Below, piece by piece: positions 17,424 to 33,853 of a DNA stretch of 64,000 bases. The DNA is from a virus: positions 17,510 to 81,509 of the IMG/VR virus record IMGVR_UViG_3300031885_000004; one strand, written 5' to 3'. A model generated the notes under the pieces. The model searched no databases, was not told the DNA's origin, and worked only from the letters and a program-made list of their open reading frames with translations. A program made the translations under genes and the position numbers. The stretch's first letter is position 1. Each line of letters opens with the position of its first letter.

Positions 17424-18029
17424 CTAAAAATATAAATTATCTATCATATATCTTACGCCAAAATTATGATCAATATCAGTAATATACCCTAGGTTTTTGG
17501 CTTTATGGAGCCAATCACCCATCATTATTCTATCACGTGGCGACCCAATTTGTTTTTCGACGTGGTTACATAATTTTGTGAAATTGAATGTATCAGAAAC
17601 AAATTGGCGAACAGCCAGATCGCTAAAGTGCCAAAGTGGTGCTGAGATCTTAGAAGTAGTTGCAAGCGCTTGTTTTATTATGATTTGCTCTTTATCTTTT
17701 AGTATATTAAACCACTCTTTCCCTTCTATTGAAATATCTGACTCACGCACTGGTTGCTTTTCATCAATTGGTTCTAATGTACCATCAGGTTGTTGGACAA
17801 ATTTCTTCTCTCGCAGAGCGCGAATATATTCTATGGCTTCTGCTCCGGAAAATCCAGCGCGTTCTAGTAACCTGCGCGCATCGTTCAAGCCCATTTCATT
17901 TCCTTCGATCACGAAGCGATATCTTACGATGTCCCCAGTGCTCGTAATGATCACCGATATATAATCTGAATCGTGCACATCAGGATCTTCAGTGATTAAT
18001 CTCGCCATATCTTCTGGAATAGTGTTCAT
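17424..18029 (-). CDS. Hypothetical protein with ITEDPD leader
   Basis: MNTIPEDMARLITEDPDV. Confidence 0.8.
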   Translation of the reverse strand: MNTIPEDMARLITEDPDVHDSDYISVIITSTGDIVRYRFVIEGNEMGLNDARRLLERAGFSGAEAIEYIRALREKKFVQQPDGTLEPIDEKQPVRESDISIEGKEWFNILKDKEQIIIKQALATTSKISAPLWHFSDLAVRQFVSDTFNFTKLCNHVEKQIGSPRDRIMMGDWLHKAKNLGYITDIDHNFGVRYMIDNLYF

Positions 18030-25213: not shown

Positions 25214-26626
25214 ATGGAAGATGTCAGAACACCAGACGCAATAGATGATATAGAGATTAAATATCCAGGACCAAAAGATTTGGTGCATCTGCACTCACAT
25301 ACTATATTTTCAGCTCTTGATGGTATTGCATCACCAGAAGATTATATGAAAAGGTGCGGAGAACTTGGTATGTCAGCTATTGCCATAACCGATCATGGGT
25401 GTCTTGCATCTTTCCCAGACGCTTATTTTGCGGCCAAAACATATAAGATAAAATTCATACCAGGATGTGAGATATATTATAATGATCACCACAATGAACT
25501 ACAGGAATTCCAAAAAAGTGGTAATAAATGGTCATCTTTGAAATTGTTGGACCTAGAAAAATATGAATTATTACGCAGGCATAGACACGTAACTGTTTTG
25601 TCTAAAAACCAAGTTGGGTATAAAAATTTAATCCATATGACTACCAATGCATGGGAAATTGGCCATTATTATAAACCAAGAATCTGGATGGATATACTTG
25701 ATAGCCATAAAGACGGGCTAATTATTCTTAGTGGGTGTATGAATGGTCCGGTATGTCACGAGATAAGGGCAGCACACGAATTAACCATTAAAGGCCAAAA
25801 TTCGGAAGCAAGTAGGCATTTAGAGATGGCCAGACAGTGGTTAAATGATATGCGCGAAATATTTGGGAAGGACCTATATATTGAAATGCAAATGCCGGGT
25901 AAAGACCTTGACGGGTCAATCCAAGCTTTCGCGACATGCGCGAGATGGTCTGATGAATTTGGCATAAAAGCCGTCATAACTAATGATTGCCATTATATTC
26001 ACAGACAAGACTTTGATGTTCAAAAATGCATGATGGCGGTTGACCAAAAAAAGACATTAGATGATCCTGAGCTATTCACCACCAATTCAAGCGAGCAATA
26101 TTTTAAGAGCAGATCGCATCTTAGGGCTATATTCCACGAGCATGGCTATAATGCAGATGTTAGTCAGGCTAAATTTGAAGAAATTTGCGATAACACTGTT
26201 GAAGCTGCAGAAAAATGCGATGGGTTTAAACCAGACCTATCACCAAAATTACCAGCCATTAAAAACGCTAGTGATAAACTAACAGTTTTAGTATTAAATG
26301 CTCTCAAGGATAAGGAGTTATATAATAGCCAGAAGAAATATGAAGTTGATGGAAAGATGGTCACCCATAAAGAGCAAGCCCTGATAGAATTAAGTCGGAT
26401 CATCTCGAAAGGCTTCGCGCCATACTTTTTAGTGATTCGAGATTTAATACAATATTCTATTAATAGTGGATGGGATGTTGGTCCTGCCAGAGGTAGCGCT
26501 GGCGGATCATTGGTTTGTTTTCTAATCGGGATCCACGAGCTTGATCCATTAAAGTGGCACCTATCATTTAATAGGTTCATGTCGCCGTCTCGAGGCGGCA
26601 ACATGCTGAAAGTATCAATGGAATAA
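25214..26626 (+). CDS. dnaE: DNA polymerase III alpha, N-terminal part (PHP domain plus start of palm)
   Basis: HLHSH..FS.LDG, AITDHG, GCEIY, SGC, TNDCHY, GPARGSAGGSLV, F.RF; ends before the PDID motif. Confidence 0.92.
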   Translation: MEDVRTPDAIDDIEIKYPGPKDLVHLHSHTIFSALDGIASPEDYMKRCGELGMSAIAITDHGCLASFPDAYFAAKTYKIKFIPGCEIYYNDHHNELQEFQKSGNKWSSLKLLDLEKYELLRRHRHVTVLSKNQVGYKNLIHMTTNAWEIGHYYKPRIWMDILDSHKDGLIILSGCMNGPVCHEIRAAHELTIKGQNSEASRHLEMARQWLNDMREIFGKDLYIEMQMPGKDLDGSIQAFATCARWSDEFGIKAVITNDCHYIHRQDFDVQKCMMAVDQKKTLDDPELFTTNSSEQYFKSRSHLRAIFHEHGYNADVSQAKFEEICDNTVEAAEKCDGFKPDLSPKLPAIKNASDKLTVLVLNALKDKELYNSQKKYEVDGKMVTHKEQALIELSRIISKGFAPYFLVIRDLIQYSINSGWDVGPARGSAGGSLVCFLIGIHELDPLKWHLSFNRFMSPSRGGNMLKVSME

Positions 26627-27051
26627 TGTATAAAGAAATTGACCAGCTGCTTAGAAGAGGATTTTGCGCCATTAGTATAATGGCTGATCCAGATGGATCA
26701 TATAAAGATTCAAATGAAGTATGGGGCGAATCATATGTTTATATCAGCATTACACATAAGCAATATACGTCAGAACTAAGGTTTTTGTTTAGGTCGATTG
26801 GTTTCACACAAACCTGTGATACATTACGAAAATTAGTCAAAATGTATGATGATCGAAAAGGTGATGTGTGGGAGTTATCAAACCAGAAGAGAATACCATT
26901 GAATTTGTTGCCAACCGATAAAATATTAATACAAGGAACCATTAATGGGCTTAAAATAGCTAGAGAAATTTTAGGATTAACTATCCATGACCAAAGAGAA
27001 GTTAAGCCTACTCCGAGACCTGGTGGCCAAAGCCCTACATGCACAAGCTAA
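26626..27051 (+). CDS. Hypothetical protein
   Basis: Translationally coupled to the upstream gene (TAATG). Confidence 0.6.
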   Translation: MYKEIDQLLRRGFCAISIMADPDGSYKDSNEVWGESYVYISITHKQYTSELRFLFRSIGFTQTCDTLRKLVKMYDDRKGDVWELSNQKRIPLNLLPTDKILIQGTINGLKIAREILGLTIHDQREVKPTPRPGGQSPTCTS

Positions 27052-27388
27052 CTACATACGCATAGTTGGAGACGACTTGCCAATTCGCGCTTATATTACA
27101 CTATTTAAGTGGCCAGATGTAACAAGTAGCTTGGTGCTGGCATTGAACGACAATGAATCAGCAATTGATGTCGCGATTGACGATTTATCGGCCATAATTA
27201 TTTGCACGCTAAGGCCATTAGCATTAACGTATGTTGATATTGCCAAAAATGCAATGGATAAAGATGCCGTCAGGGAGGAGATAAACTTATTATCAAAATC
27301 GGGAAACATACATAGCTCAAGAGACCAATTAATTAAGATAATTAATGGCATCAGTGATGCCAACCATGGATTCCCACGAATAATTTAG
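26987..27388 (+). CDS. Hypothetical protein
   Basis: ORF within the operon. Confidence 0.55.
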   Translation: MTKEKLSLLRDLVAKALHAQANYIRIVGDDLPIRAYITLFKWPDVTSSLVLALNDNESAIDVAIDDLSAIIICTLRPLALTYVDIAKNAMDKDAVREEINLLSKSGNIHSSRDQLIKIINGISDANHGFPRII

Positions 27389-27398
27389 GAATGTAAAC

Positions 27399-27758
27399 AT
27401 GAAAATTGAGACTGGTGGGATAGTCAGTAAAAAGACTGGGTCGAAGTTCGCTGTTATAATTAAGATAGGTAGTGAAATTAGATCGTATGTGCATGAAGTC
27501 AAATCAGATTCGACACTTAATTATGTTGAATTATTGGCGGTTAAATTTGCTTTACTTGGTTCGAATGTTACACCAATAATAATTTCAACACCAAACGTCT
27601 ATGTATGTGATATCTTAAGGCATGAGGGCGATAATTGGCTAAAACTGCCAAAATCAAATAAAGAACTAGTAGATGAAATCAGAAAGCTTATAATAGAAAA
27701 GAATGCATCAATAACGTTCGAAAGAAACGAAGAAATTAGGAAACTGTGTAGCTCATGA
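27399..27758 (+). CDS. RNase HI-like protein, degenerate
   Basis: STLNYVELLAVKFAL, NVYV, W...KSNKELVDEI; first catalytic Asp not evident. Confidence 0.55.
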   Translation: MKIETGGIVSKKTGSKFAVIIKIGSEIRSYVHEVKSDSTLNYVELLAVKFALLGSNVTPIIISTPNVYVCDILRHEGDNWLKLPKSNKELVDEIRKLIIEKNASITFERNEEIRKLCSS

Positions 27759-30700
27759 CGTGGAAGGAACTGAAAAGATTGGCGGCCAACACCCTCGCCA
27801 CGAGGTTTAAGGGTAGAACTACAGAATATACCGGAAGGTTAAGATATGAATTAGACCAAATAGAGTTACAGGGTGCTGAGGATTATTGGATTGACCTATA
27901 TGATAGTAAAAGAACGTTCGACACCAACCATAATGGGTTGGTATTTCCACTGCTTCTTGGGATAACCAGCATCAACCCAATAGAACGCAGCATACCACAT
28001 AATATTGTATATCAACCAGATTATCCAGACATTGATACTGACTTCCTACCGATAGCACGCGATCATATTAAAAAATATGCATCAAAACAATATGGTGAGG
28101 ATCGCGTATGTAGTGTTGGGTTGTGGCAGACATATAAACCAAAGTTGGCGATAACAGACGTGTGTAGGGTAATGAAGATTGACCCAACAGAAGCGCAGAG
28201 GCTTACTAAAGAACTACCAGATGAATTCGACGATATGGATTTTGAAGCGGCATGTAATGCCTACCCGAATTTTAAGACATTTGCGGACAATAACGACAGC
28301 GTAATCAAAATGTCGTATAGGCTAGTGAAATTAATTAGGTCCCAAGGAAGACATGCAGGTGGGTTAATAATATCAAGCGTACCAGTACGTGATTATATTC
28401 CTCTTACTAAAAGCCCATCTGGACCAAAAGGGCAATGGACATCGGCGTGGACGGAAGGCAAAAGCACTCAACTGTCAAAATTTGGATTTATAAAATTTGA
28501 CATACTTGGCTTAACCAACCTTTTGCATATATGGATATGCAAACAGTTTATAAAGAAAAATCGCGGAGTTATAATCGATTGGGGCGATATGGACCCCGAG
28601 GTTGATAGGGCCGGGTGGGAAATATTGCCGGATGGCACCAAGAGCGCCATAAGTTTTAAGGACGACCTAGCGTTAGATATGGCCGATAAGAGAAGAGTAG
28701 AGACCATATTCCAATTTGAAACAGATCTCGCTAAAAGCATAATCCAAAAGGGGCATGGTGTAAAAAGTTTCTATGACATGGTTATTTATACGTCTCTTGG
28801 TAGACCAGGACCTTTACCGCTGGTCAACGATTATGTTGCAAGAAGAGACGCCAAAAATGATGATTGGAAAACCAAAGAGGACCCTAAAATAGTAGAAATT
28901 TTATCAGACACTTACGGGATTATAGTTTTTCAGGAGCAACTAAGCAAGTTCTTCATCAAAATATGTGGATTCACAGTACCAGAAGCCGAAGCCGCGAGAA
29001 AGGCTGTAGCTAAGAAGTGGGCCGATCAACTAAAAAAGATCAAAGACAAGATGATTGCTGGGGCTACCAAAACAATCGGGCACGATAAGGCGGTTGAGTG
29101 GTGGGGTAAAATAGAGTCATTTGCTAGATATTGCTTCAATGCCTGCCTAGACGGCGACACGACCATTGTCAATCCAATAACATTAGAAAGGACGACGATA
29201 GAACAATTATATCTAAATCCAAAGCCGTTCAAGCTGTTGTCATTTAATAATGGTGAACTAGTAGCCGACGATGTGGTCAATATACACTACAATGGCATGC
29301 TGCCAATATATCAAGTTATGTTTAGTAATGGGCTTACGCAGAACGTGACTATTGGCCATAAATTTATGAATGTTTATGGCAACATGGAAACTGTTAAGTC
29401 TCTCTTGAAGACCGGTCATGCAATCAAATATATAAGTGATAGCATGACTGGAGGAGAATATGTTTCACAAGCTAAATCTGCAAATAGAGAAAGAAGTGGT
29501 AAGGATGTACCAGGAGGGTGCATCATACAAAGAAATAAAAAACGACATAAGAGCATTTTCATCGGACGGAACGATAAGGAGAATAATAAAAAAGCATGGC
29601 GTACAGAGATCATTTATAACTCAAGCATCCAACAGTGTGAACCATTATTACTTTTCGAAGATAGATTCGCCAGAAAAGGCATATTGGATCGGGATGTTGA
29701 TAGCAGATGGGTACGTTCACAACGGGAGGGGATATGTAAGTTTGCAGCTCAATTCGAAAGATCAATTGCTGGTGGAGCAATTTGGCCAAGATATAAAAAC
29801 ACCAAGGAAGATGGTAATCTGCAAGAAACAGCGTGCTGGTCCGCAATCGAGGATATCAGCCAGCAGCAGGATGTTATTAGCGGACCTAAGCAAATATGGT
29901 GTGATTCAGGGAAAAGAAGGACGGGAGATAATGCCACGCATGCGGTTTATTTCCCATCTTCTGAGAGGGCTTATGGATGGAGACGGAACGATTATCGTAA
30001 ATGGCAAGGGATATCCTATGGTAAAATTTTGCGGATCTCCGAAAGTAGTAAAAGGATTCAGGGACGCGATAATCAAGCACTGCAGGGTAAGAGTGAGCAA
30101 GATAACAGAATATTCAGAGAGGATGAACGCTGTGGCGTGGTCTGGCCTAAAACAGTGCAAACCGATCCTGAGATATCTCTACAGGGGGGCAACGAGATTC
30201 TTGGTAAGGAAGCAAATCGTAGCGGATGCTATATTAAGAGCATCAGATATATCGGAGTTAAGAGGACATATTCGCCAGAGATGAGATCTATTCAGCACAA
30301 TTACATAACCTCACCACAGGATGGTCAACCAATACAAGCAAATTCACATGCAATGGCTTATATAGTTATTACATTTAGGTGTTTGTGGTTGAAAGCCCAC
30401 TATCCAACAGAATGGTGGGCATCGGTCATGACGAATTGCAAACGCGAAAAGTTGGTTAAGTATATGGGAATCGCTAGATCTGAGGGAGTGAAATTCGGCT
30501 CCCTTGACTACAACCAGCTTAGCCAGACTTTCTCGGTCAGCGGGGATACAATTACTTTGGGGTTAGAAAGCATTAAAGGCATTGGCGATAAAGCTGCATT
30601 AAAAGCGCAAGGCGACCGCGATTGCACCAGTTTTGATGAATTTGTGTCACAAGCATCGAAGAACAAAATAATATTTGAGCGGTTAATTAAACTCGGCGCA

Positions 30701-31342
30701 TTTGATAAATTACACCCAAATAGGAAAGCATTATGGAACTGGTATCTTTATAAATATGGATCTGGGAATGACACCAAGATCGTTAAAGAAGAAGTGGCGG
30801 CCAAATTAGCGTGGAGCGATGAGAATATTGCTAAAGAGAGGCTGAGACAGACTAAAGAATTTCTAGCCAATTATCCTAGGAAAAAGAAGATACCAGCTCA
30901 TATAGAAAAATGGAAACCGAAAAACAATCCGACAATCCAACAATTCGAAGAAATGTTCGGAGATTTTTCATATGAGGAAAGGCTAAAATTTGAAAAGGAA
31001 TATCTTGGATATTATTGGAGCTCGCCTCTTGGTATATATAATTGCGCCAACCAAACTATAGATGATGCTAGATCTACTGGGATTCTTGAGGCGGTGATTG
31101 ATAGCATTGATACTAGGAGAGGCAAAAACGGAGCATTTAAACAATTAAATGTCACAGATGGTATTGAAATTGCCAAAGTAATGGTGTGGCCCGATGAACT
31201 TGCTATCAATGACGAGAATATATTCAAGGAAGGCATGGGAGTTAGAATGAGAGTATCTTGGAAAGAAGAATATTTGAGCTTTAACGTTAGATCAGGCTCA
31301 ATTGTATTGCCACTGGAGAAGAAGAATGCTGCTCCAATCTAA
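27755..31342 (+). CDS. dnaE: DNA polymerase III alpha catalytic part, intein-containing
   Basis: YPDIDTDF, GRHAGG, KFDILGL, FQFE, RPGP, FQEQ, YCFNA-[intein]-SHAMAY, LKAHYP, GLESIKGIG, EKEYLGYY. Confidence 0.95.
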   Translation: MTWKELKRLAANTLATRFKGRTTEYTGRLRYELDQIELQGAEDYWIDLYDSKRTFDTNHNGLVFPLLLGITSINPIERSIPHNIVYQPDYPDIDTDFLPIARDHIKKYASKQYGEDRVCSVGLWQTYKPKLAITDVCRVMKIDPTEAQRLTKELPDEFDDMDFEAACNAYPNFKTFADNNDSVIKMSYRLVKLIRSQGRHAGGLIISSVPVRDYIPLTKSPSGPKGQWTSAWTEGKSTQLSKFGFIKFDILGLTNLLHIWICKQFIKKNRGVIIDWGDMDPEVDRAGWEILPDGTKSAISFKDDLALDMADKRRVETIFQFETDLAKSIIQKGHGVKSFYDMVIYTSLGRPGPLPLVNDYVARRDAKNDDWKTKEDPKIVEILSDTYGIIVFQEQLSKFFIKICGFTVPEAEAARKAVAKKWADQLKKIKDKMIAGATKTIGHDKAVEWWGKIESFARYCFNACLDGDTTIVNPITLERTTIEQLYLNPKPFKLLSFNNGELVADDVVNIHYNGMLPIYQVMFSNGLTQNVTIGHKFMNVYGNMETVKSLLKTGHAIKYISDSMTGGEYVSQAKSANRERSGKDVPGGCIIQRNKKRHKSIFIGRNDKENNKKAWRTEIIYNSSIQQCEPLLLFEDRFARKGILDRDVDSRWVRSQREGICKFAAQFERSIAGGAIWPRYKNTKEDGNLQETACWSAIEDISQQQDVISGPKQIWCDSGKRRTGDNATHAVYFPSSERAYGWRRNDYRKWQGISYGKILRISESSKRIQGRDNQALQGKSEQDNRIFREDERCGVVWPKTVQTDPEISLQGGNEILGKEANRSGCYIKSIRYIGVKRTYSPEMRSIQHNYITSPQDGQPIQANSHAMAYIVITFRCLWLKAHYPTEWWASVMTNCKREKLVKYMGIARSEGVKFGSLDYNQLSQTFSVSGDTITLGLESIKGIGDKAALKAQGDRDCTSFDEFVSQASKNKIIFERLIKLGAFDKLHPNRKALWNWYLYKYGSGNDTKIVKEEVAAKLAWSDENIAKERLRQTKEFLANYPRKKKIPAHIEKWKPKNNPTIQQFEEMFGDFSYEERLKFEKEYLGYYWSSPLGIYNCANQTIDDARSTGILEAVIDSIDTRRGKNGAFKQLNVTDGIEIAKVMVWPDELAINDENIFKEGMGVRMRVSWKEEYLSFNVRSGSIVLPLEKKNAAPI
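29144..30343 (+). mobile_element. Intein (400 aa) in DnaE
   Basis: Starts CLDGDT; block B TIGHKF; block F YSPEMRSIQHNYI; ends QAN|S. Removal restores YCFNASHA. Confidence 0.9.
29460..30284 (+). CDS. LAGLIDADG homing endonuclease nested in the +1 frame inside the intein
   Basis: N-terminal HTH; KAYWIGMLIADG and LLRGLMDGDG motifs; GGAGGAG SD at 29450; CAAATATA at 29425. Confidence 0.9.
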   Translation: MFHKLNLQIEKEVVRMYQEGASYKEIKNDIRAFSSDGTIRRIIKKHGVQRSFITQASNSVNHYYFSKIDSPEKAYWIGMLIADGYVHNGRGYVSLQLNSKDQLLVEQFGQDIKTPRKMVICKKQRAGPQSRISASSRMLLADLSKYGVIQGKEGREIMPRMRFISHLLRGLMDGDGTIIVNGKGYPMVKFCGSPKVVKGFRDAIIKHCRVRVSKITEYSERMNAVAWSGLKQCKPILRYLYRGATRFLVRKQIVADAILRASDISELRGHIRQR

Positions 31343-31754
31343 AGACGGCATCAGATGCGATATTTGCGGTATGGTTCTGAAAAATGAGTTTATATATTAT
31401 TCAGAAGAGTGGAGAGCAATCGAAGTAAATAATGTTGGACAATCAGTAAGGCCAGGAGGCTTGATTGGATCATTCGACATTTGTCCATCGTGCTATAGCA
31501 GCAGATTGGAAAGTTGTAAAAAGAACATCAATAAATTCAAAGCTGGTAGTATTAAATGTGATTTATGCCCGCTATATATAAGCGGCAGCAAGTTTGTATA
31601 TTTTAGGGTTATGGTTGATAAAGCCGATGTTAGTTCGGATGGACATGCGGGTGTTGAAAGAAAATTCATGGATTTTAATGTGTGTTTATCTTGCAAAAAC
31701 CAGGTTTTTGCTAAGATGGAGCAAACTAAGAGTAAAGGAGGAGATTGGTCATGA
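31326..31754 (+). CDS. Cys-rich (two Zn-finger) hypothetical protein
   Basis: CDIC, CPSC, CDLC, CLSC. Confidence 0.7.
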   Translation: MLLQSKDGIRCDICGMVLKNEFIYYSEEWRAIEVNNVGQSVRPGGLIGSFDICPSCYSSRLESCKKNINKFKAGSIKCDLCPLYISGSKFVYFRVMVDKADVSSDGHAGVERKFMDFNVCLSCKNQVFAKMEQTKSKGGDWS

Positions 31755-32284
31755 GCGAGAAGAAGAAAGTTAATATGTCTGATAAAACTGTTCTAGCGTA
31801 TAGTTTACGCCACGTATTTGTTAATGGCGCTGAAGTTGAATCTAGACCAGTACAGTGGGATGGGAAAGATTACGATGGCCAAGGACATGACGAGTCAGGT
31901 AGAGGCGTATTGCCAATTGCATATATAACAACATGCCCAGAATGTGGTAATTTGATCCAATTTGGCGCGTCAGACATTGTGATTAAAGATGGTAAAGATA
32001 TAGTAGTATGTCAGCGGTGCCTATCGCCTGGTAATAGTGGCAGACCAAAGCTTGGACCGCCGAATACCAAACTTCAGAATACGATGCCAAAATCGTCTGA
32101 AGCCAAGTCAATTGAAACATCGAAGATCATTGAGGCACCAAAGGCAGTTGAGGCACCAAAGGCAGTTGAGGCGCCAAAGGCAGTTGAGGCACCAAAGGCA
32201 GTTGAGGCACCAAAGGCAGAACCAAAGCCTGACTTATCTGAATTTAGTGACCCGATCAAATCTGGGGCGATGAAACTTGACTGA
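31745..32284 (+). CDS. Zn-ribbon protein with EAPKAV repeats
   Basis: CPEC, CQRC; about five 18-bp repeats at 32131-32219. Confidence 0.7.
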   Translation: MVMSEKKKVNMSDKTVLAYSLRHVFVNGAEVESRPVQWDGKDYDGQGHDESGRGVLPIAYITTCPECGNLIQFGASDIVIKDGKDIVVCQRCLSPGNSGRPKLGPPNTKLQNTMPKSSEAKSIETSKIIEAPKAVEAPKAVEAPKAVEAPKAVEAPKAEPKPDLSEFSDPIKSGAMKLD

Positions 32285-33173
32285 TATTATCTTAGGGAGT
32301 GGGTTGAATGGACTTCTCGCTCACTTAATATTGGGCGAGCAGAGTAAATTTATTGCATATAAAAAATCTCGTTTTTTCTCACATCAGATCCCGATATCTG
32401 ACAACCACATCGAAGCAAGCGAAGACGGCCCAAGATTGGCCACACTTATTGGCCTCCCATTACGCAAGAAATATTTCCCAGTAGCAGTGTCATATCGCGG
32501 CGAGCTAATATTCAATAAAAGAACGTGGGCGTCGACCATTGTCGATAAAGTTTTTCAAAGCCATCCAGCTGCCTATAATATGCTATGTAGAGACTTTAAC
32601 GTCTATGAATTGACTGCTAAATCATTGTACGATTTATTGATCTCAAAATATCAAGATGAAATATTAAAGTCTCCACCACAAATCATCAGAATATTAGATA
32701 AACGCGTTATTACATCGGATGGCACAGAAATATCATACGATAGAATAATTAGTACAATTCCATTAAACGCGTTACTCGAATTGGTTGGTGACGACTCAGT
32801 TCTAAAATCACTTGACTATCATGTCTTTTTGATGGCGACTGACGTTTTCAACTTAGAGGGCGCACAAAGATGTTATATAGGTGACGTAGCCATTCCTTTT
32901 TGGAAGGTTAATGTTTTAAATAATAATTTATATCAATTTTTTGCCAATAGCGAAGTATCTAATGCCGAAAAGGTCTTTTCTTTATTAGCTAAAGATAGGT
33001 TTAGAATAATATCGAACACAATTATAAAAGAGGCATTTCCAGACGGCGCACCCCCAATTGAAATAATTAAGAAATTAGAATCAAAATCAATATTCTGTAT
33101 TGGCAGCAATGCTAGGTGGGACTACTTTTTTGATATAGCATCTAGTATAAGTAAACTATTTTCACTAAAATGA
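32277..33173 (+). CDS. FAD-dependent oxidoreductase-like protein (UGM/PPO-like fold)
   Basis: ILGSGLNG, YDRIISTIPL, IGSNARWDY. Confidence 0.6.
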   Translation: MTDIILGSGLNGLLAHLILGEQSKFIAYKKSRFFSHQIPISDNHIEASEDGPRLATLIGLPLRKKYFPVAVSYRGELIFNKRTWASTIVDKVFQSHPAAYNMLCRDFNVYELTAKSLYDLLISKYQDEILKSPPQIIRILDKRVITSDGTEISYDRIISTIPLNALLELVGDDSVLKSLDYHVFLMATDVFNLEGAQRCYIGDVAIPFWKVNVLNNNLYQFFANSEVSNAEKVFSLLAKDRFRIISNTIIKEAFPDGAPPIEIIKKLESKSIFCIGSNARWDYFFDIASSISKLFSLK

Positions 33174-33853
33174 TGTATGATTATGAAGAAGATAGGATGG
33201 AAAGGGAAAGAGCTCATTTTGATTGGATTCCCATGAATGATGCTAGAATGACGATGCTCAGGTCGCTACGTGACACATGCAAGGATTGCGTCTTATGTCA
33301 ACTTGGGCGCGGGCATCAGGTGGCGCATAAAGAAAGTATAGATCCGCACGTTTTTAGCACCATGGTGCCAAGTAAGTTCATGGTGATCGGGCAGAACCCC
33401 GGCTTTGAAGAATGCAAGCAGGATCAACCGTTCGTTGGCGATGCTGGTAAAAAGTTTAACCAAGAAATTGAAAAATATGGCCTAACGAGAAATGATTTTT
33501 ATATCACCAATATAGTAAAATGTTATACGCCAGACAATCGTAAGCCAGAACCGGGCGAAGTAGATAAATGTAAGTTATTCTTGCTCATGGAGCTAGAAAT
33601 TATAAGCCCTCAATTTGTGATTACGCTTGGTGCAGTTCCTTTTGAAATATTGTGCCCAGACGCTTTATACGCTAAGGCACTTGGTAAATTCACATACTCA
33701 GAATTGATCAAAAAGAAGGTATATGCAATATATCATCCGTCGCCTAGAAATATGATAGTAGAAGAAAGAAAAGAAAGATTTGATAGATGCGTCGAATTGC
33801 TGTGTTTAATGATGAAAAATCTTAAGCAAACGGGGCAAGTGAGTAACACGTAA
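33170..33853 (+). CDS. Uracil-DNA glycosylase family 4
   Basis: CxxCxL, GQNPG..E, PFVG.AG, NIVKC, HPSP. Confidence 0.93.
   Translation: MMYDYEEDRMERERAHFDWIPMNDARMTMLRSLRDTCKDCVLCQLGRGHQVAHKESIDPHVFSTMVPSKFMVIGQNPGFEECKQDQPFVGDAGKKFNQEIEKYGLTRNDFYITNIVKCYTPDNRKPEPGEVDKCKLFLLMELEIISPQFVITLGAVPFEILCPDALYAKALGKFTYSELIKKKVYAIYHPSPRNMIVEERKERFDRCVELLCLMMKNLKQTGQVSNT

Follow-up and report, generated by a model that had tools for sequence, protein, structure and literature searches.

The window analyzed here, 64,000 nucleotides of viral DNA (positions 17,510 to 81,509 of IMG/VR record IMGVR_UViG_3300031885_000004), carries a dnaE gene (DnaE, Pol III alpha) that is interrupted by an intein-coding insert, and within this insert a complete LAGLIDADG homing endonuclease gene is written on the same strand, one base out of frame with the polymerase. 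We consider it very probable that this arrangement represents a functional, non-canonical mobile intein whose homing endonuclease is a separate, out-of-frame gene. An initial annotation, made from the sequence alone, had placed an intein with intact N- and C-terminal splicing blocks at 29144 to 30343, with an in-frame middle lacking endonuclease motifs, and had proposed that the +1 frame encodes a helix-turn-helix (HTH) plus two-motif LAGLIDADG protein with its own Shine-Dalgarno sequence, both frames being free of stops. As laid out below, these elements were borne out to the exact coordinates, and the proposed promoter, origin, and degree of novelty had to be revised. The source of the window is an 81.5-kb virus record with a completeness estimate of 22%; because relatives of the element lie on contigs of 310 to 395 kb, the virus is probably a jumbo phage. 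The features on which the argument rests, with the polymerase frame taken as frame 0, are as follows:

27755 to 31342, + strand: dnaE core gene, an open reading frame (ORF) encoding a precursor of 1195 amino acids (aa), intein included
29144 to 30343, + strand: intein in frame 0, 400 codons, precursor residues 464 to 863, from Cys1 (CLDGDT) to the terminal Asn (..QAN)
29144 to 29440, + strand: N-terminal splicing (Hint) subdomain
29412 to 29451, + strand: RNA hairpin upstream of the endonuclease start, recognized by fold energy and covariation
29450 to 29456, + strand: Shine-Dalgarno sequence GGAGGAG of the endonuclease gene, recognized by sequence
29460 to 30284, + strand: homing endonuclease gene in the +1 frame, 274 aa, coinciding with the 275-codon dual-coding stretch
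30227 to 30343, + strand: C-terminal splicing subdomain (CYIKSIRYIGVKRTYSPEM..HNY..QAN), recognized from alignments

The product of the dnaE core gene matches the Pfam families DNA_pol3_alpha, finger domain, and HHH_6. Its insert lies between FNA and SHA, with the Ser that follows encoded at 30344 to 30346, and many homologues read uninterrupted through RY(C/A/S)FNK-SHA at this position, presenting an empty site. Block B of the insert reads TIGHKF (29348 to 29365) and is, like Cys464 of CLDGDT, invariant across six aligned relatives. At the other end, block F takes the form YSPEM..HNY, and the ..QAN-SHA junction at 30341 to 30346 retains the terminal Asn and the following Ser in all relatives. 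The N-terminal subdomain is conserved across all relatives, including the mini and split forms described below. A profile built from the intein and its relatives (A6) matched solved inteins, namely DnaE (E 1.8e-5), the RecA mini-intein (6e-4), and DnaB (0.03), and one mini form (L071) matched Pfam Intein_splicing with an E value of 5.7e-5, under the gathering score. On the strength of these sequence features, we assign the 400-codon insert as an intein. A Pfam search with the 400-aa in-frame intein returned nothing credible, leaving its middle without a domain. In the structure model of frame 0, intein residues 90 to 362 have a predicted local distance difference test score (pLDDT) of 22 to 42, compared with 52 to 90 for the flanking Hint parts. 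With half the conservation of the +1 frame in addition, the in-frame middle looks like filler.

The +1 frame is interrupted by stops every few dozen bases along dnaE and is open only at 29448 to 30281, following a TGA at 29445 to 29447 that lies four codons upstream of the endonuclease ATG. The encoded protein contains an HTH at residues 7 to 46 and two LAGLIDADG motifs, the first at 29685 to 29711 (WIGMLIADG, Asp83) and the second at 29958 to 29987 (LRGLMDGDG, Asp175). Among 69 aligned relatives, catalytic Asp83 is invariant and Asp175 is at least 90% conserved. Pfam LAGLIDADG_3 recognizes the product with 31.7 bits against a gathering cut-off of 22.5, the phage family phrog_4645, annotated as "endonuclease", matches with an E value of 1.2e-44, and an endonuclease profile finds I-Tsp061I at 1e-10. 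An AlphaFold2 model based on the 69-sequence alignment (pLDDT 94.2, predicted template modeling score 0.84) places a three-helix HTH before two alpha-beta-beta-alpha-beta-beta-alpha domains, and its best Foldseek matches in the PDB, all with probability 1.00, are I-Tsp061I, I-GpeMI, the bI3 maturase, I-AniI, and I-OnuI. The +1 product is thus predicted, by sequence and model, to be a monomeric two-motif LAGLIDADG homing endonuclease with an N-terminal HTH and putative cleavage activity. Its relatives are numerous (16,223 cluster representatives at E <=0.001), and most of the best 150 are 250 to 330 aa long. Free-standing DOD endonucleases of Staphylococcus and Bacillus phages match over 91% of the product length, and the nearest relatives outside the intein family are phage endonuclease genes of free-standing size.

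The same layout recurs elsewhere; looking for other inteins with off-frame endonucleases had been suggested in the initial annotation. Scans of IMG/VR and Joint Genome Institute (JGI) metagenomes yielded the following further examples:

L002, on a 370-kb viral contig: complete example
L079, from TARA: identical to L002 across the endonuclease residues compared
L077, from a metagenome: complete example
L064, on a 310-kb contig: complete example
L058/L080, from a metagenome: one nonsense codon in the endonuclease

In all of these the endonuclease lies in the +1 frame throughout and is 46 to 55% identical to that of the window. Comparisons below refer to five lineages, comprising the window, L002, L077, L064, and L058. 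Each of the five has a +1-frame stop 1 to 5 codons before the endonuclease ATG, which is TGA except in L064. A GGAG- or GAGG-type Shine-Dalgarno motif is present in L002, L058, and L077; L064 is without such a motif and its purine run is weak. The last part of the gene is shared with the intein, as the first 19 codons of the C-terminal splicing subdomain (30227 to 30284) double as the endonuclease tail, and the endonuclease stop TGA sits within the YSPEM codons of block F in the window and in all the further lineages. A long insert of the same kind, its middle again filler-like, is found in two proteins, P0003 and P0004, and their protein alignment suggests that off-frame genes are present there as well. 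Other searches were less productive: a megablast of the dnaE gene against phage records gave no match, the endonuclease as a single query found none among viral contigs, and a scan with a two-sequence intein alignment (A3) returned only the contig of L002 again. An endonuclease alignment searched against bacterial and archaeal genomes found only distant relatives in Clostridia and haloarchaea (24 to 28% identity), none of them in cyanobacterial dnaX, together with one 27-residue match at 56% identity.

Both reading frames of the shared stretch are held open by selection. Frame 0 is stop-free through the 275 shared codons, and synonymous shuffles of the endonuclease ORF contain on average 11.2 frame-0 stops, with 0 of 20,000 reaching zero. 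The five lineages each have no frame-0 stop where 11 to 18 are expected (0 of 5000 shuffles in each case), and free-standing relatives of the endonuclease have 5 to 41 stops in their alternative frames. The mark of this constraint can be read from the endonuclease codons themselves. A frame-0 stop requires an endonuclease codon ending in T that is followed by a codon starting with AA, AG, or GA, and across the five lineages T occupies the third position in none of 423 such stop-prone contexts, compared with 30% elsewhere (Fisher test, 8e-54).

Selection on protein sequence falls on the endonuclease. As synonymous sites are saturated among the five lineages (about 50% identity), nucleotide identity by codon position was compared in place of codon-model dN/dS. 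Mean identity at endonuclease codon positions 1, 2, and 3 is 0.63, 0.75, and 0.44, which indicates purifying selection on the endonuclease protein and is the reverse of the pattern expected if frame 0 were selected. At the protein level, the endonuclease frame reaches 54% amino acid identity compared with 29% for frame 0, and the conservation of the endonuclease equals that of the polymerase exteins. The purifying selection on the +1 ORF that the initial annotation required is therefore found. Within the shared stretch, the polymerase frame appears to be selected only against stops, except at the ends, where the splicing subdomains overlap it.

The same dnaE site exists in several other states. 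In the tree of C-exteins, LAGLIDADG-bearing alleles are interleaved with empty alleles, and the sister of the window (L003, support 100/99) is itself empty. Mini-inteins are also present. The +1 frame of the mini-intein L071 still reads LVRKEIVAHATLKASNLSDLEKFIPRR, which corresponds to the endonuclease tail with the RK that is invariant in the family, and a second mini-intein protein, P0005, shares 76% identity with L077, an endonuclease-bearing allele, and lacks only the overlap region. The remnant in L071 and the closeness of P0005 to L077 make these mini-inteins more probably deletion derivatives than the invaded ancestor. Free-standing relatives match the endonuclease only to residue 251 to 262 or so; hence the last 15 to 20 codons look like an extension overprinted on the intein C-terminal strand. 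The idea that a free-standing endonuclease gene invaded a mini-intein, as put forward initially, is thus upheld only in part. The endonuclease is indeed a separate and complete gene with relatives of free-standing size, and invasion of some mini-intein by such a gene is the likeliest ultimate origin, but the mini-inteins inspected are more likely products of deletion.

In the other half of the C-extein tree, a related intein at the same dnaE site is truly split (L009, L053, L060, L062, L066, L081, and L083). Between its halves lies a Vsr-like ORF of about 520 aa (about 480 to 575 aa from stop to stop) that is in another frame and overlaps both intein halves. Such a locus spans, for example, 4344 to 5909 of L009; L066 has two Vsr-like ORFs and internal repeats. 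The split loci have the fractured-gene arrangement of Dassa et al. 2009, in which the host gene is divided into two ORFs, each carrying an intein half at its end or start. Such a division is seen in L009, L053, L062, L081, and L083, whereas the window ORF is continuous for 1195 codons. At two further loci, L069 and L072, the intein halves are separated by ORFs matching neither the LAGLIDADG nor the Vsr-like gene, and in L072 a 284-codon open +1 frame begins right at the intein start.

Expression of the nested gene was initially attributed to a late-promoter motif, CAAATATA, at 29425, with the consequence that endonuclease timing would be decoupled from polymerase expression. A late promoter at this motif is not supported. 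The window holds 8 copies where 5.0 are expected, a number reached by 13 of 100 shuffles; the other copies lie mostly within ORFs at no fixed distance from gene starts, and the copy at 29425 to 29432 encodes the conserved intein residues I-K-Y-I, which explain its presence. Because the motif is not enriched, decoupling at the level of transcription is left unsupported. A scan for sigma-70-like promoters from 27000 to 32000 found 11 sites, compared with 16.7 in shuffles, and no + strand site between 28744 and 30643. Among the sequencing runs listed, no RNA run holds this stretch of the window.

The endonuclease start is instead covered by RNA structure. In the minimum free energy (MFE) fold, the 3' arm of the hairpin at 29412 to 29451 and its extension pair with the Shine-Dalgarno sequence, and CAAATATA falls in the inner stem and loop. 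The MFE is -24.9 kcal/mol (z -2.9). Over the five lineages, 83% of cells are paired and 6 of 14 pairs have changed on both sides, a covariation matched by none of 500 shuffles and by slid controls only to the extent of 0 to 1. A conserved hairpin over the ribosome-binding site points to translational control rather than a promoter. As a hypothesis from these five sequences, translation of the endonuclease is probably throttled, or coupled to ribosomes reading dnaE.

From this architecture we infer the following mechanism. The dnaE core would be translated straight through in frame 0, and the N- and C-terminal Hint subdomains would fold together, with about 270 unstructured filler residues looping out where intein endonucleases are usually inserted. 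Splicing would then join FNA to SHA and yield the polymerase. From the same DNA, read one base later, the endonuclease would be made by internal initiation at its own Shine-Dalgarno sequence and ATG. With the hairpin holding the start site, its synthesis would probably be low, or coupled to ribosomes that unwind the hairpin as they read dnaE. The endonuclease would most likely cut dnaE alleles without the intein, or without the endonuclease gene, in co-infecting phages, and repair would copy the whole element into the cut allele.

Several observations weigh against such a functional, mobile element. The penultimate His of block G is absent, being replaced by Ala in the window and by Ala, Arg, or Lys in relatives; some inteins without this His do splice. 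The hairpin evidence comes from five sequences, and the 5' arm also encodes conserved intein residues. In the L058/L080 endonuclease, one CAA of the relatives is replaced by TAA (YVSL*L), with frame 0 staying open; the change could be polymorphic or reflect inactivation in the recent past. In L058 the nonsense codon lies at about 9696 on the minus strand in original coordinates, and the remainder of the endonuclease ORF is open. Finally, endonuclease and exteins have diverged to a roughly similar extent, so that there is no direct sign of recent horizontal transfer.

This parallel divergence, the L058/L080 nonsense codon, and the existence of mini-intein derivatives would all fit an alternative in which the endonuclease no longer homes and is vertically inherited, decaying or domesticated, while the intein persists as a harmless splicer. 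We regard this as unlikely in view of the strong purifying selection on the endonuclease frame, the retention of both catalytic Asp residues, the confident and complete structure model, and the sporadic distribution of the element among closely related empty alleles such as the sister L003. Considerably less probable is programmed ribosomal frameshifting, +1 near 29450 and -1 near 30280, which would produce a canonical intein-endonuclease fusion and render the separate start irrelevant. Such a fusion would fit the openness of the two frames and the position of the endonuclease, which is precisely where intein endonuclease domains are canonically inserted. However, a +1-frame stop closely precedes the start in 5 of 5 lineages, the ATG is conserved and follows a Shine-Dalgarno-like purine run in 4 of 5, and frame 0 would have no need to stay open; no slippery sequence was noticed at either junction on reading, a formal search not having been made. 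That two compensating assembly frameshifts hide an ordinary in-frame endonuclease, a concern raised initially, has nothing in its favor beyond the prior expectation of in-frame coding, which is usual for such enzymes in inteins, and the chance is negligible given that the region reads the same, letter for letter and without indels across both junctions, in Logan contigs of four sediment-metagenome runs, of which three are not the likely source, that the same +1 offset recurs in four other lineages at about 50% protein identity from different metagenomes, that error would not keep 275 alternative-frame codons stop-free, and that a +1-frame stop lies four codons before the ATG.

Taking the separate, out-of-frame endonuclease gene as the best account of the window, a broader reading of the locus can be offered tentatively and is, on balance, doubtful. 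At this one jumbo-phage dnaE site, a single family of inteins would exist in four states that convert into one another (empty; contiguous with an overprinted +1 LAGLIDADG gene; mini-intein with an endonuclease 3' remnant; and split with a Vsr-like gene), and the hairpin would couple endonuclease translation to the ribosomes on dnaE. If true, hairpin coupling would mean that an intein-borne selfish gene within the frame of another gene is expressed by translational rather than promoter-based means.

The surroundings of the core gene show further peculiarities. DnaE of this phage is encoded in two genes, a 470-aa PHP-domain and N-terminal part (25214 to 26626) being separate from the core. A possible duplication of the start of the core gene by the C-terminus of the PHP gene was checked, and there is none. 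Between the PHP gene and the core gene (region 25214 to 27758) lie three small ORFs, in order 141, 133, and 119 aa long; neither the 141-aa nor the 133-aa ORF has a family match, and the 119-aa ORF weakly matches an RNase H phrog (E 5.6e-4). Downstream of the polymerase cluster lies a uracil-DNA glycosylase family gene (33170 to 33853; Pfam UDG, E 1.3e-27). Other DnaE relatives carry further insertions of 0.25 to 2 kb at three other sites, most with a frame change: near residue 77 to 81 (L008, L010, and L018), near 391 (L016), and near 330 to 357 (L021 to L023). Introns, additional split inteins, or inserted endonuclease genes are possible explanations.

The window thus provides a well-supported and deeply conserved case of 275 same-strand dual-coding codons in which one frame encodes a real protein and the other is merely stop-free. 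Gene callers miss nested genes of this type, so that inteins containing them are mislabelled as decayed. The mini and split siblings at one site form a natural series in which the entry of endonucleases into inteins, and their exit, can be tested, and such a series bears on the "splicing first" model (Dassa 2009, Gosselin 2025). The system also allows testing of how a gene within another actively translated frame is expressed.

Our literature search found no paper describing this DnaE intein family, and several published systems share parts of its architecture. The ShiLan insertion (Arsenault et al. 2025, PMC11855218) likewise is an insert in a phage gene that is stop-free in the host frame and hides an endonuclease, there of the HNH type, in another frame. 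The ShiLan insert, however, has no splicing domain and is retained in the protein, whereas the overlap in the window is flanked by clear intein blocks. Fractured genes, in which split inteins flank a free-standing endonuclease gene (Dassa et al. 2009, PMC2677866), resemble the window in affecting phage replication genes, DnaE among them, in carrying a free-standing-type endonuclease gene within the intein-coding region, in having hairpins upstream of the endonuclease start, and in the overlap of the endonuclease 3' end with the downstream intein part. They differ in that the host frame of the window is uninterrupted, and its contiguous intein would splice in cis rather than in trans.

Closer still are the non-canonical actinobacteriophage inteins (Gosselin, Arsenault et al., bioRxiv 10.1101/2025.01.02.630785), phage inteins whose endonuclease has an ORF of its own, either in a different frame or on the opposite strand. 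Their authors propose invasion of inteins by a free-standing endonuclease gene, and Pol III alpha is among the intein hosts. The reported cases comprise antisense LAGLIDADG, antisense Vsr-like, and frame-3 endonuclease VII-like genes, but none of them is a jumbo-phage DnaE intein with a LAGLIDADG gene in the +1 frame of the same strand.

The nearest counterpart is an out-of-frame LAGLIDADG gene in a cyanobacterial dnaX intein (Phillips, DeSimone and Gogarten, bioRxiv 10.64898/2026.09.14.751524), a study that credits Gorbalenya 1998 for an out-of-frame intein endonuclease. As in the window, an uninterrupted intein in a replication gene holds a same-strand LAGLIDADG gene in an overlapping frame between its splicing subdomains, with a putative Shine-Dalgarno sequence, an in-frame middle predicted to be disordered, and purifying selection confined to the endonuclease frame; there, as in the family described here, both mini-intein and empty alleles occur alongside. 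The likeness is one of architecture. The host gene is a phage dnaE rather than a bacterial dnaX, the offset is +1 compared with a reported +2 ORF, and the window endonuclease is set apart by its N-terminal HTH and its membership in phrog_4645, a family of free-standing phage genes. Out-of-frame and antisense intein endonuclease genes having been published in these two studies and, as cited, in Gorbalenya 1998, the novelty implied by the initial annotation was set too high. The architecture is already known and rare, and the window is not a new category but a further example of it in a DnaE intein family, one that adds a covarying hairpin over the ribosome-binding site and an endonuclease tail overprinted on intein block F.

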